The translations under genes and the position numbers were made by a program. Shown here in pieces: positions 3,967 through 63,734 of a stretch of DNA of 64,000 nucleotides (positions are counted from its first letter, which is position 1; each line of letters opens with the position of its first letter). Source of the DNA: Eledone cirrhosa (lineage: Eukaryota); NCBI GenBank assembly GCA_964016885.1, contig OZ024756.1, positions 29,078,001 to 29,142,000 of the forward strand, written 5' to 3'. Under the pieces are notes generated by a model. The model was not told the DNA's origin, ran no database searches, and saw nothing but the letters and a program-made list of their open reading frames with translations.

Positions 3967-5350
3967 TTTGAGACCGTATGTTGAAACAAAAGTAATTATC
4001 GTGCAAGGAGTTATTTTTGCCATTCAAAAAAACATACAAAAACTTTTAACCCCATTATTTTTACATTTGTTATATATTTCCTGGTGTCAAAATTTTAATT
4101 TCATTTTTTGTTATTCTCTGATTCTGTAGAGGTTTCTAAAGAATTCTTCTTCATCGTCATCTTTTTACGCCCATTCTCCATGCTAGCACGGGTTAGACGA
4201 GTTGTTATGATCTGATTAAACATATTAGATGACCATATCTTGCTCAGAAATAAGCTTCGTCCTCGATTTGACAACCAAAAATTTGAAAAAAATTAATAAA
4301 CATCCTTCGGCCTTCAGGACGCATGGTAGAGTTTTGAGACTTATTTTAGGGAAAAAAGTAGCATCTTCGATGGCGGGAAATACGGTGATTGTTGTGAAGT
4401 CTAGAATTTGTAGCAACTTTAATCCTTTTATTACTGTATTTCTAATGAAAGACCAAACATCTAAAATCCAGGGCCTTCTCACTCCTTTTGGAGAAACCCC
4501 TCTCTGGTTGACGTCCACTGCTTCTTATCTCTGTCCATGTGGGGTTGAGGTATCAGGTCAGATCATTGCACCATCTGGTCTTTGGTCACCCTTTCGTTCG
4601 TCTCCACTGCCATGGTGTCTACTCTGTCTTTCTAATAGTTCACCTGTTGTCTCTGAAATGAGAGATATGGCCAGCCCATCTGTGTTTGTCCTAATGAAAG
4701 GATATTGCCTATTACTTATTGACAGTAAAAAAGATGTAAGGCAAAGTTGACCTCAGCAAAATTTGAACTCGAGGCAGAGAGAGCTTGAATATATTCCACA
4801 AACCATTCTATCTGAAGTTCTAATGACTCTGTTAATTTGCCACCTGTAGTAGCATATGAAGAGGTTCTGTTACATAGAAATGGTGAACTCTGATCTCAGA
4901 ATGCCAACCTTCATACGTGAGATTCTAAAAGGTCAAGATTTAGTGTGAGGCCCATGTCAGTTCTCTCAAGCTTGTGCTAACCCTCTAGTGTGAATACAAG
5001 GAAGACTATAAATCAGAGTAGTACTCAATGCATGGTGATTTGTAGAGCTAGTGTATTAATGAAGTAGAAGTCCAATTATGAGCTCTGGTAGTGGGGGTGG
5101 GGGTTAGCAAGGAAAACAGGAAAGGACCGGAAAAATAGAAATAAAAATAAATATAAAACATGAAGTCAAAATAAATAGAAACAGAATTAAATGGAATTTA
5201 TATATATATATATATATATATATATGTGTGTGTGTGTGTGTGTGTGTGTGTGTTAGGTAATTCCGAAGAAAAGGCAAAGGAAAGGAAAAAAGAGTGCTCT
5301 ATGTATAGAACAGAGCTATTTAATTAGAAAGTGAACACAACAGATAACAT

Positions 5351-5418
5351 CTTTGTCTGATGAACGATCCAGACGTATATTGATATTGTCTGGAGTCCTG
5401 AAACCTTTGGTAATGGAG
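5351..5418 (+). ncRNA. Type I hammerhead ribozyme motif (partly degenerate)
   Basis: CTGATGA 5357-5363; stem II tccagac/gtctgga; GAAA 5400-5403; stem III acc-ttt-ggt; GUA site 5410-5412; stem I ctttgt/atggag with G-U pairs. Confidence 0.65.
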
Positions 5419-5825
5419 TAGTGATATATTGTGTTTCTAATTTTATATATATATATATATACACATATAGAAGTGGTAACACAACCTAACTCGTCCCATG
5501 GACTGAGTTCTCTACCACTACGGATATTACCTTCCAGTGCTCTCTCTCTCTCTCTCTCTCTCTCTCTCTCTCTATATATATATATATATATAATGTCCTA
5601 CTTTCACACACACACATATACACACAAAGTAAAAGTAAAGTTTAAAGTAGGAATTTGTCGTCCCCCCTCTCTCTCACTCACCTTGTCTCTCTCTGTTTTC
5701 TATCTTCTCAACTTCACTTCTCCCCTTCCCTCCCTCTTGGTCTGTCTCTCTATTTTCTGTCGCTTAAAAACTTCTTCAGCCTCCTCCTCTTTCCTTCTGT
5801 CTCTATTTTTCTTTTTATTCCTTCC

Positions 5826-7140
5826 CCTCCACCATCTCTCCTACCCCCTCCACCATCTCTCCTACCCCTTCCACCATCTCTCCTACCCCTTCCACCATCT
5901 CTCCTACCCCTTCCACCATCTCTCCTACCCCTTCCACCATCTCTCCTACCCCTTCCACCATCTCTCCTACCCCTTCCACCATCTCTCCTACCCCCTCCAC
6001 CATCTCTCCTACCCCCTCCACCATCTCTCCTACCCCTTCCACCATCTCTCCTACCCCCTCCACCATCTCTCCTACCCCCTCCACCATCTCTCCTACCCCT
6101 TCCACCATCTCTCCTACCCCCTCCACCATCTCTCCTACCCCTTCCACCATCTCTCCTACCCCCTCCACCATCTCTCCTACCCCTTCCACCATCTCTCCTA
6201 CCCCCTCCACCATCTCTCCTACCCCCTCCACCATCTCTCCTACCCCCTCCACCATCTCTCCTACCCCCCTCCACCATCTCTCCTACCCCTTCCACCATCT
6301 CTCCTACCCCTTCCACCATCTCTCCTACCCCTTCCACCATCTCTCCTACCCCTTCCACCATCTCTCTTACCCCTTCCACCATCTCTCCTACCCCCTCCAC
6401 CATCTCTCCTACCCCCTCCACCATCTCTCCTACCCCTTCCACCATCTCTCCTACCCCCTCCACCATCTCTCCTACCCCCTCCACCATCTCTCCTACCCCC
6501 TCTACCATCTCTCCTACCCCCCTCCACCATCTCTCCTACCCCTTCCACCATCTCTCCTACCCCTTCCACCATCTCTCCTACCCCTTCCACCATCTCTCCT
6601 ACCCCTTCCACCATCTCTCCTACCCCTTCCACCATCTCTCCTACCCCTTCCACCATCTCTCCTACCCCTTCCACCATCTCTCCTACCCCTTCCACCATCT
6701 CTCCTACCCCTTCCACCATCTCTCCTACCCCCTCCACCATCTCTCCTACCCCTTCCACCATCTCTCCTACCCCCTCCACCATCTCTCCTACCCCTTCCAC
6801 CATCTCTCCTACCCCCTCCACCATCTCTCCTACCCCTTCCACCATCTCTCCTACCCCCTCCACCATCTCTCCTACCCCCTCCACCATCTCTCCTACCCCC
6901 TCCACCATCTCTCCTACCCCCCTCCACCATCTCTCCTACCCCTTCCACCATCTCTCCTACCCCTTCCACCATCTCTCCTACCCCTTCCACCATCTCTCCT
7001 ACCCCTTCCACCATCTCTCCTACCCCTTCCACCATCTCTCCTACCCCTTCCACCATCTCTCTTACCCCTTCCACCATCTCTCCTACCCCCTCCACCATCT
7101 CTCCTACCCCCTCCACCATCTCTCCTTCCCCTCCACCATC
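5826..7140. repeat. 21-bp minisatellite ccaccatctctcctacccc(c/t)t, ~60 copies
   Basis: Direct reading; source of the HHLSYP/PSTISPT/VGEMVEG pseudo-ORFs. Confidence 0.97.
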
Positions 7141-7498
7141 TCTCCTTCTCTCTATTTTTTAATCCCCCCCCCATCCTCTCACATCCCTTCTATTACACCT
7201 TCCTCCTTCCTCTCATACTCTCCTCTCTCTCTCTCTCCTGATTCCTCCTCCCTCTCATACTCTCCTCTCTCTCTCCTGATTCCTCCTTCCTCTCATACTC
7301 TCCTCTCTCTCTCCTGATTCCTCCTTCCTCTCATACTCTCCTCTCTCTCTTTCCTGATTCCTCCTTCCTCTCATACTCTCCTCTCTCTCTTTCCTGATTC
7401 CTCCTTCCTCTCATACTCTCTCCTCTCTCTCCTGACCCCCCTCTTTCTCTGTATATATATATATATATATTTTTTTTTATTTCTTTTTCTCTCTTCAG

Positions 7499-61759: not shown

Positions 61760-62027
61760 TGATATCATCGTCGCCATCACGTCATCATCATCATCACCAT
61801 CATCATCACCTTCACCATCACCATCATCGTCATCACCGTCACGCCACCATCGTCATCATCGTCGTCACCATCACCATCACCATCATCACGTCATCATCAT
61901 CATCATCATCATCATCGTCGTCATCACCATCACGTCATCATCGCCATCACGATCACGTCATCATCACCATCACGTCATCATCATCATCACGTCATCATCG
62001 TCATCATCATCATCATCATCGTCATCA
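61760..62027. repeat. (CAT/CAC/CGT)n triplet tract
   Basis: Direct reading. Confidence 0.9.
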
Positions 62028-62560
62028 GTGTGTGTGTGTTCATTTTATTAAGGCAAAATAGTGAGTCTTGTTACTGTGGAGTTTCACCTACTCCTCACAG
62101 GTCATCCATCACCTTATGAGAACAACACTATTTTGCCAACTCTTTTATATCTATATATCTATATATATATATATATATATATATATATATATATATATAT
62201 ATATATATATATATATAATATGTTGAGAAGGTAACACACCAGAGAGAGATATATAGTGCGTTATCAATAATACAGGGAAAAAACCACCAGTGTATGGAAT
62301 CTATAACCTATGAAAGGCAGACTATAGACACGATAATTAAAAATATAAATTAAAGCGTAAATAAGTACCTTTATAACTATATAACACACGTACAAATCCA
62401 AAGATATGTTTCACCAGAAAATTTGTTGAAAGAAATGGTCTAGTCTCGGTTCATCAGCGTGTGTAAGGCCATACATTTCAGACTGTGACTTCTCTCTCCC
62501 ACGTGTAGCTGGACAGTCAATTGTAAAATTCTCTTAGTGTTGTCTGAAATGTATGGCCTT

Positions 62561-62641
62561 ACACACGCTGATGAACCGAGACTAGACCATTTCTTTCAAC
62601 AAATTTTCTGGTGAAACATATCTTTGGATTTGTACGTGTGT
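62561..62641 (+). ncRNA. Type I hammerhead ribozyme inside 271-bp-arm inverted repeat (mirror copy on - strand ~62384-62464)
   Basis: Stem I acacacg/cgtgtgt (7 bp perfect); CTGATGA 62568-62574; stem II acc/ggt; GAAA 62613-62616; stem III acatatc-tttg-gatttgt; GUA 62632-62634. Confidence 0.88.
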
Positions 62642-63734
62642 TATATAGTTATAAAGGTATTTATTTACGCTTTAATTTATATTTTTAATTATCGTGTCTA
62701 TAGTCTGCCTTTCATAGGTTATAGATTCCATACACTGGTGGTTTTTTCCCTGTATTATTGATAACGCACTATATATCTCTCTCTGGTGTGTTACCTTCTC
62801 AACATATTATATTTTAAAGGGCTCAGGATCTCTTCCCCTTTGAGCACATTATTTACAGGGAATAACGACGGCCTATGCCTCCGTTAATTTATCGGTATAT
62901 CTATATATATATATATATATCGTTGAGTGCTTCACATCTGTTATATATAAGAATCAGTTGATTTACATTACTGGTATTTTATTTTATCGACTACGTAAGG
63001 ATGAAAGGTAAAGTTAACCTCAGCGGGATTTGAACTCAGAATGGCAAGGGCCGTAACTCTATACGTCAAAGCATGGCGTCCGACCCTCTACCCACACTGC
63101 CAATCCACAATAATAATAGTAATAAACGAAAGATATATACTTTATATCATCTCTATTTATTAGAGGGTCGGACACCATGCTTTCCAGCATAGTTACGTCC
63201 CTTTACGATCTGAGTTCAAATCCCGCCGAGGTTGACTTTGCCTTTCATCCTTACGGGGTCGATAAAATAAAGTACCAGTAATGCACTGGGATAATTGCTG
63301 GCCTTGTGCCAAAAGTAGAAACAATTATATATATTTCGAAGATGTAAAGTTTTATGTATAACATAAAGCATGTTTTGCTTTATGTTATACATAAAACTTA
63401 CATCTTCGAAATATATATAATGAAATAAATAGAGATGATATAAAGTATATATCTTTCGTTTATTACTATTATTATTGGGGTCGCTACATGGTGGATTGGC
63501 AGTATTGGTAGAGGGTCGGACGCCATGCTTTGCAGCAAGAGTTACGGCCCTTTATGGTCTGAGTTCAAATCCCGCCGAGGTTAACTCTGCTTTTCATCCT
63601 TACGGGGTCGAGAAAATAAAGTACCAGTAATACACTGGGGCTTAATCTGGCCTTGTGCCAAATGTAGAAACAATTATTATTAGAGTCGATAACATAACGT
63701 ACCAGTCTCGCACTGGGGTCGATTGTTATTGTTA

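Follow-up and report, generated by a model that had tools for sequence, protein, structure and literature searches.

Penelope-like elements (PLEs) of the Hydra clade are defined, in the accessible part of PMC8557442, by a DKT motif, a CxCx5C linker, and CxxC and CxH motifs around conserved E and N residues, with a reverse transcriptase (RT) plus a GIY-YIG endonuclease, the latter C-terminal, in one reading frame. The same part of that source gives them a type I hammerhead ribozyme in the pseudo-long terminal repeat (pLTR), a preference for (TA)n, an inverted 5'-truncated copy and a tail that is often at one end only (figure legend), and its supplement lists a member from an octopod, Octopus bimaculoides (Hydra-1_Obim), that bears a hammerhead and prefers (TA)n. 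In O. vulgaris, PLEs account for 6.83% of the genome, a figure given without clade assignment (PMC13282606). Hammerheads are also carried by retrozymes of the non-LTR (non-long-terminal-repeat) type, which lack an open reading frame (ORF) and consist of head-to-tail repeats, each unit bearing a single type I hammerhead (PMC7229834; Li et al. 2026, bioRxiv 10.64898/2026.07.22.740005; both as far as accessible). Here we analysed a 64,000-nucleotide (nt) stretch of the octopod Eledone cirrhosa (contig OZ024756.1 of GCA_964016885.1, positions 29,078,001 to 29,142,000; hereafter the window), which holds six hammerhead-bearing islands, labelled A to F after their families. Islands A to E are almost certainly 5'-truncated 3' ends (pLTRs) of Hydra-clade PLEs, and F an ORF-less 541-nt tandem element. 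The islands are as follows.

5254-5443, both strands: island A. Short tailed arm (minus strand, ~5254-5346; tail hairpin 5296-5316, minus strand), head-to-head with a tail-less arm (plus strand) bearing the hammerhead (core 5357-5363, plus strand; predicted cut after 5412).
33968-34225, both strands: island B. Tail-less arm (minus strand) to ~34061, core 34027; tailed arm (plus strand) with core 34098, predicted cut after 34136 and tail hairpin 34164-34182.
55154-55460, both strands: island C. Long tail-less arm (minus strand) with the most canonical hammerhead of the set (core 55243-55237, GUC, predicted cut after 55212); short tailed arm (plus strand) 55337-55460, hairpin 55360-55381.
55966-56105, minus strand: island D. 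Single tail-less arm; CCGAGGA core 56083-56077; predicted cut after 56004.
60172-60626, both strands: island E. Tail-less arm (minus strand) to ~60350, core 60272; tailed arm (plus strand) with core 60436, predicted cut after 60485 and hairpin 60545-60564.
62218-62894, both strands: island F, ORF-less. Arms correspond to positions 184-454 (minus strand) and 125-536 (plus strand) of the 541-nt tandem unit; cores 62457 (minus) and 62568 (plus), predicted cuts after 62391 and 62634; hairpin 62821-62845.

A preliminary description of the window had taken these islands for ORF-less, Penelope-derived or retrozyme-like families, 150-700 bp long, bordered by (TA)n and unrelated outside the core. Their measured lengths are 162-684 nt, all border (TA)n, two of them via short (TG)n or (AG)n, and the six fall into six separate clusters, in agreement with that account. 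The inverted layout, previously seen in three islands, is present in five of the six, A and C each combining a long tail-less with a short tailed arm, and the "1-58 nt spacer" described between the arms consists for the most part of sequence by which one arm exceeds the other, the junction gaps being 0, 0 and -1 in B, E and F. A 3' tail exists, but on the references used it is 67-107 nt long and not ~70-90 nt. The islands are multicopy and dispersed, with hundreds to thousands of candidates per family. The numbers of candidates in first-look searches were 2,445 (A), 2,392 (C), 2,435 (D), 913 (E) and 2,585 (F), of which 40 each were scored, and exact patterns matched 1,623 times (A, 28-mer), 5,155 times (B, 27-mer) and 234 times (F, 26-mer) genome-wide. 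Relatives of A are 82-90% identical and the family is older, while E is young, its copies being 98-99% identical.

Within the window no ORF adjoins any island, and short copies are the majority in every family, as the preliminary description's reading of all six as separate ORF-less, non-autonomous families amplified as short units would have it. Elsewhere in the genome, however, A to E are joined to Hydra-type RT or GIY-YIG frames (A: L353; B: L243, L250, L339, L340 and L343; C: L108, L109 and L114; D: L215, L233, L234, L341 and L342; E: L102, L104-L107 and L115). Penelope-derived origin is thereby borne out for these five, and "ORF-less" is wrong for them. In locus L108 an uninterrupted frame of 913 codons is flanked by two C pLTRs; L109 and L114 are arranged in the same way with broken frames. 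For E, the pLTR runs on into a common 3' untranslated region (UTR) in 7 of 29 other loci, and longer stretches of these seven revealed RT and GIY-YIG frames in six and a fragment in one, L102 and L115 having the order pLTR-ORF-pLTR. Among 30 position-ordered B loci, two have a tail that leads into an RT, as does L343, and an endonuclease end lies upstream of D in 3 of 30 loci. No ORF link was found among 30 pattern-chosen A loci; with a UTR-directed query, the A tail led into a degenerate RT N-terminus in one of 30 loci (L353). Loci L332-L334 were considered as full-length A elements and rejected as segmental duplicates.

Since A to E are joined to Hydra-type frames elsewhere, their window copies are ordinary 5'-truncated ends. 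Junctions vary among copies, as independent truncation would predict and a fixed short unit would not. The reading of all six islands as short, ORF-less units is thus largely refuted for B, C and E. It retains the absence of an ORF from F, from an array of 310-nt units (L177) and from a 1.07-kb B derivative (L336), all described below, and as an explanation of the six islands together we regard it as highly improbable.

Both domains, RT and C-terminal GIY-YIG, lie in one frame in C and are present with breaks in B and E; only RT was found for A and only endonuclease for D. The GIY-YIG assignment was made from motifs, Pfam giving at best an E value of 0.047 in one protein. DKT, YRDD, CxCx5C, CxxC and CxH were found in the B, C and E proteins by regular expression, and the CxCx5C linker, CxxC and CxH in the D fragment by eye; A was too degenerate to score. 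The traits that mark the Neptune, Nematis, Poseidon and Naiad groups, namely a CX2-5CxxC linker, a CCHH motif in the endonuclease or an endonuclease at the N-terminus, were not found in B, C and E, which have the CxCx5C linker and a C-terminal endonuclease and, by eye, no CCHH motif. An AlphaFold model of the 913-aa C protein has a pLDDT (predicted local distance difference test) of 81, and its six best PDB matches are telomerase RTs; its best named homolog, from Argonauta hians, is 43% identical.

Families A to E thus resemble published Hydra elements in gene layout and motifs, in the hammerhead, the TA trait, the inverted copy and the one-sided tail. Because the clade, its hammerheads and its TA trait are published, the main finding is of an already known kind, and A to E are mostly new families of a clade already recorded in the octopod host group. 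They differ from the elements in the accessible text of PMC8557442 in several respects. There are many families at very high copy number here, whereas few were found outside cnidarians there. Pairing C pLTR to pLTR gives ~4.7 kb, and E 3.8 kb, in contrast to a published length of less than ~3 kb, which is a general and not a diagnostic trait, and the 3' UTRs here are long and partly microsatellite. Tails are 67-107 nt compared to 30-40 nt, and the N-terminal motif is RWR in B, C and E where that source has RWK. The tail hairpin and the counts of end pairs described below were not met in that text. A literature search confined mostly to open papers, with subscription papers for the most part, Repbase and preprint supplements outside its scope, returned no octopod hammerhead paper besides PMC8557442.

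The 3' UTRs of B, D and A hold long degenerate (TA/TG)n tracts, of ~1 kb or more in B (L343, L244-L246, L229, L353), so that the elements may create new targets for themselves as they spread. Nested insertions are common.

The six type I hammerhead cores were found at the positions given in the preliminary description, except that 55237 and 56077 mark the lower-numbered ends of cores on the minus strand, which start at 55243 and 56083. A strict descriptor matched only the two F copies in the window. A relaxed descriptor, set after the window sequences had been inspected, recovered nine matches compared to a mean of 0.05 and a maximum of 1 in 200 block-wise dinucleotide shuffles; eight are real (A, D, and two each in B, E and F), and the ninth, at 24894, was rejected as low-complexity sequence. 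The C core lies outside this descriptor and was matched by a further-relaxed one. It is also a match to Rfam RF00163 (Hammerhead_1) at 55205-55249, with 31.7 bits against a gathering score of 34 (E 6.1e-4), and the only match to a hammerhead family among the matches listed (150 of 345) in an Rfam scan of the window that returned mostly microsatellite matches to miRNA models. An independent systematic sample of 60 x 10 kb (600 kb, contigs C1-C13) gave 64 descriptor matches, 17 of them in one array, compared to 0-2 in 15 shuffles. The cores are therefore far above chance in both sets. The density in the sample is 78-107 per Mb, and with nine real cores in 64 kb the window is close to typical. 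By Poisson extrapolation from the 600 kb, the 3.0-Gb genome would hold about 1.7-4.1 x 10^5 hammerhead motifs. No such total was met in the literature examined; counts made with other descriptors are ~120,000 hammerheads in axolotl and 5,000 in mussel (PMC7229834, accessible part).

Stem III is 2-3 bp in A, C, D and E and longer in B and F. Island D combines a long stem II with a palindromic 2-bp stem III. Minimal PLE hammerheads, as far as PMC4209133 was accessible, likewise have a short or palindromic stem III, as in A, C, D and E, with high variability among families, and those with a short stem III are reported there to need dimers; the longer stem III of B and F and the cores CCGAGGA (D) and CAGAAGA (K, a further family described below) differ from them. 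Covariation of the stems across copies was found in D, where compensatory pairs occur at 7 of 12 pairs and none of 500 shuffles reaches that number. It was only partial in E, with 13 compensatory cells (0/500 shuffles) in only two pairs (221/500). These shuffle figures are not probabilities, as the copies share descent. RNAalifold recovered stem II only in D and gave an unrelated hairpin in E.

Outside the ribozyme the families are unrelated except for one feature. A hairpin of the form RYTC...GARY begins soon after the tail-less end point in all six families and in family K. It consists of four pairs with natural compensatory variants: its arms are GCTC/GAGC in A, C, F and K, ACTC/GAGT in B, D and E, and GTTC/GAAC in another cluster. 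Between 59 and 93% of the distinct tailed copies per family have it. With loops of up to 25 nt it was found in four of seven held-out clusters compared to a chance level of 1.3% (two matches had loops of 26 and 32 nt). Inspection by eye of published consensi located GCTC...GAGC near the ends of Hydra-2_Amil, Hydra-1_Ajap and Hydra-2_Ajap (coral and sea cucumber) and an imperfect form in Hydra-1_Amil and Hydra-1_Crog; it was absent from Hydra-1_Obim, the consensus of which stops before a tail. A covarying hairpin across Hydra tails was not met in the literature examined. By analogy we infer that the Hydra protein binds it.

Each family has two 3' end points. Counted from the cut site, they lie at 48 and 138 nt in E, 51 and 153 nt in C, and 173 and 262 nt in F. 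From 237 candidate head-to-head arm pairs, 152 were kept after the removal of 78 with an unclassed end and seven duplicates. One tailed and one tail-less end were found in 148 of these 152 two-armed insertions of A to F, and in 58 of the 61 where the locus had not been picked by a DNA query of that family. Three never-queried families gave 22 of 25. Pooled, the two-armed insertions that combine exactly one tailed with one tail-less end are therefore 170 of 177. This count of end pairing was not met in the literature examined.

The flanks agree with the (TA)n borders described earlier, (TA)4 lying within 12 nt of 212 of 304 copy ends compared to 5.6% in the background. As (TA)n of at least five units covers 5.3% of the sampled genome, as segmental duplicates exist (L002, L003, L118, L119) and as the 3' UTRs of A, B and D themselves bear TA/TG tracts, the palindromes, F tandems and TA runs could be ascribed to DNA-level events after insertion (inverted duplication, unequal crossing-over, slippage) or to assembly error. 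Duplication would, however, repeat the same end and not yield one of each in 170 of 177 insertions. F arrays are spread over many contigs and share two terminal unit positions, and both the opposite-strand joints and the 541-nt junction recur in contigs of public runs. Such an origin therefore has very little probability.

A better competitor is a single priming event, in which one complementary DNA (cDNA) folds back on itself to be copied, with endonuclease cleavage of the resulting hairpin at a second fixed site; the accessible part of PMC8557442 suggests "EN-mediated resolution" (EN, endonuclease) for PLE tails. Mirror junctions are in excess, 11 of 58 lying within 5 nt where permutation gives a mean of 5.6 (p 0.008; in part an artefact of reference divergence), and 6 of 37 F junctions are symmetric modulo 541 (p ~1e-4). 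In all six families, the two arms of an insertion resemble each other more closely than they resemble arms from other insertions, and overlaps of a few bases occur at 68 of 155 junctions. Yet a copy cannot outreach its template, and in 24 of 58 insertions it is the tail-less arm that extends further 5', the difference exceeding 15 nt (the tailed arm is longer in 18 of 58). A cDNA begun at the tail-less site would hold no tail to copy in single-unit cases, in F tandems the copying would have to pass identical sites unstopped, and the published in vitro data on Poseidon, as far as accessible, are of two start sites (PMC11167929). Because either arm can be longer, a simple fold-back of one cDNA is disfavoured, unless palindrome centres were later deleted, and we consider it unlikely.

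The unlike end pairs in 170 of 177 insertions and the fact that either arm can be longer favour instead priming at two fixed RNA sites on opposite strands of the (TA)n target, which by analogy with Poseidon we judge somewhat more probable than not. In vitro, Poseidon of Anolis carolinensis nicks and extends both strands, two internal RT starts bound its tail, and ribozyme cleavage is not needed (Frangieh et al. 2024, PMC11167929, accessible part). As here, two fixed 3' ends bound the tail, the target is AT-rich, the pLTR reads through into the ORF and the ribozyme cut is not at the insertion ends. Poseidon belongs to a different clade, and its starts lie within the ORF at an AC-rich stem-loop, whereas here RYTC...GARY opens a tail that extends no further than the ORF start. 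No relevant pairing of Penelope with twin priming was found in the mostly open papers searched. Ribozyme cleavage as the setter of arm 5' ends was considered and not supported: these ends do not pile up, 5 of 98 being located within 3 nt of the cut site (p 0.68). In addition, 136 of 184 non-F arms read through the predicted cut site, and together these two observations indicate that templates are uncut or religated.

Taken as a whole, the islands are probably best explained as truncated Hydra pLTRs, together with F, inserted by the Hydra RT/GIY-YIG protein priming at two fixed RNA sites. The protein would bind the tail hairpin on read-through RNA and nick both strands of (TA)n. One cDNA would start just 5' of the hairpin and give the tail-less end, the other at the end of the tail and give the tailed end. 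Both would stop early and then be joined head-to-head by template switch or microhomology, producing a palindrome. The excess of mirror junctions and the likeness of arms within one insertion suggest that a single source probably gives rise to the two cDNAs, which a switch close to a common point then joins. The ribozyme may process tandem transcripts without setting the insertion ends.

Several points weigh against this explanation. The mechanism is derived from sequence patterns and the Poseidon analogy, and the two-site model is drawn from another clade with a shorter tail; palindromes could also lose their centres, in which case unequal arms would be secondary. Seven of the 177 insertions are exceptions (six tail-less/tail-less, one of them the window K copy, and one tailed/tailed), and among the 78 of 237 arm pairs removed for an unclassed end, both ends were unclassed in 41, for the most part through TG-repeat noise. 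Among the examined loci no empty target site was found, and the (TA)n flanks may reflect either targeting or growth after insertion. The hammerhead descriptor and the tail-hairpin pattern were both defined after these sequences were inspected. Minimum free energy (MFE) folding of seven cores gave the full hammerhead fold in none and a clear z-score for C only (-2.9). In four proteins neither RT nor GIY-YIG scored above the Pfam cut-off, and a PDB sequence search found nothing. The link of A is one locus in 30, from a targeted search, and that of D consists of degenerate C-terminal fragments. For F, the parent search scored 40 of 2,585 candidates, and an autonomous parent of F is possible.

The earlier description as ORF-less and retrozyme-like holds for F, the 541-nt unit being alone in every examined locus (46 loci with duplicates, 30 position-ordered loci representing 23 insertions, and eight more). 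F occurs head-to-tail in up to ~4.4 copies, often inverted, with one type I hammerhead with full stem III per unit and a longest ATG-started frame of 26 aa. Arrays terminate close to unit position 454 or 541, so that 87 nt separate the two fixed ends, and a few copies are cut by other sequence. In 15 of the 23 position-ordered insertions F crosses its own unit junction, and it is attached to no other upstream sequence; ORF matches near F sit beyond TA runs. The 541-nt junction is also found in contigs of public runs from two organisms. Locus L338, considered as an ORF-bearing F, was rejected as a segmental duplicate.

By its sequence F fits a non-LTR retrozyme, although its unit is longer than the 170-400 nt typical of retrozymes (up to 972 nt in Li et al. 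2026, accessible part). It also has the PLE insertion signature, namely inverted arms, a fixed pair of ends separated by 87 nt, flanking TA repeats and the Hydra tail hairpin. The hairpin is the best sign that F likely uses the Hydra protein, and F is very probably a passenger of that protein. The ribozyme would reduce multimers to single units, and the template would be either circles formed by religation or multimers left uncut. In vertebrates, the retrozyme-PLE link rests on co-occurrence and pLTR homology, according to the accessible part of bioRxiv 10.64898/2026.07.22.740005.

Two further ORF-less tandems were observed. L177:3850-9333 (G000:C3, ~55.004-55.009 Mb) is an array of 5.5 kb in which an ORF-less hammerhead unit of 310 nt is repeated, the full units being 100% identical. 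Its two inverted arms of ~5.5 and 12 units end in (TA)n ~166 and 131 nt past the cut site, bounding a 35-nt tail in which the Hydra hairpin was not found. This array appears to be a fresh retrozyme-like insertion. At L336 (G000:C1:83.68-83.69 Mb), the B 3' UTR and pLTR form a tandem of ~1.07 kb without an ORF; seven units were seen in the locus and at least 12 matches were listed. It is possibly a retrozyme born from an autonomous family, or a local duplication. In a wider picture, which we offer tentatively and consider rather doubtful in its entirety, Hydra proteins would recognise a tail hairpin conserved from coral and sea cucumber to octopods and prime on each side of the tail on opposite TA strands, creating the palindromes; F and the 310-nt array, with its other tail type, would carry such signals and be copied rolling round circular RNAs, and several hundred thousand hammerheads would result.

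Family K was absent from the preliminary description, which missed its variant core. K is a Hydra-linked pLTR (L374, L195), and in 23 of 33 copies its hammerhead-like motif has CAGAAGA for CTGANGA; by eye, stems I-III can be formed. There are 18,366 exact 30-mer matches genome-wide and 13 copies in the 600-kb sample. The motif is a variant that is invisible to standard descriptors. It was not met in the literature examined. The window holds two copies.

21023-21631, both strands: family K foldback, both arms tail-less; CAGAAGA core 21087 (minus) and 21579 (plus).
43930-44095, plus strand: decayed tailed family K copy, hairpin 44020-44056.

In the parts accessible, PMC8557442 names as open how PLEs form inverted or tandem ends and choose microsatellites, and bioRxiv 10.64898/2026.07.22.740005 names retrozyme mobility as open. 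The end rule, the hairpin and the variant core are leads that make these mechanistic questions testable, and the genome provides a test set with an uninterrupted Hydra frame, two end points per family, compensatory hairpin variants and the ORF-less F with the same signature. At ~80-110 descriptor matches per Mb, these ends will resemble novel non-coding RNAs or miniature inverted-repeat transposable elements (MITEs), and the parent protein is unlabelled by Pfam.

Of the decayed cores listed previously, the one at 63408 is upheld by E-like relatives, the one at ~34600 has two partial relatives, and the one at 43814 had no relative in the examined loci beyond the window. These and other related features are as follows.

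34555-34720, both strands: decayed foldback with a degenerate core; two partial relatives only.
43637-43760, both strands: second family A copy, both arms truncated 3' of the ribozyme, without a core; absent from the preliminary description.
43809-43870, plus strand: isolated core (43814) with GAAA, a short stem III and no stem I partner; family unconfirmed.
54686-54933, plus strand: decayed fragment of a Hydra-type GIY-YIG domain, separate from island C.
63320-63470, both strands: foldback truncated (5') inside the ribozyme, retaining GAAA and the cut site only; relative of an E-like subfamily.

An old TA-flanked foldback at 34810-35300 of the window is a relative of another PLE tail family seen in 45 loci. 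A second PLE type with another C-terminal endonuclease, presumably Neptune- or Nematis-like by its motifs, was seen at L250:1-900 and L247 and forms TA-flanked hammerhead foldbacks. The E copy at L101:5259-6095 is rich in A-to-G changes, with a protein identity of 78% compared to 97-100% among its sisters; the pattern is like that left by A-to-I editing when it acts on the template RNA, or by sequencing error. Lastly, an abundant tRNA-like short interspersed nuclear element (SINE), with matches in more than 130 loci, lies at window positions 29030-29425, 30813-31369, 62966-63283, 63170-63320 and 63480-63660. Its copies in the window include inverted pairs, and a weak Rfam tRNA match lies nearby at 30054-30113.

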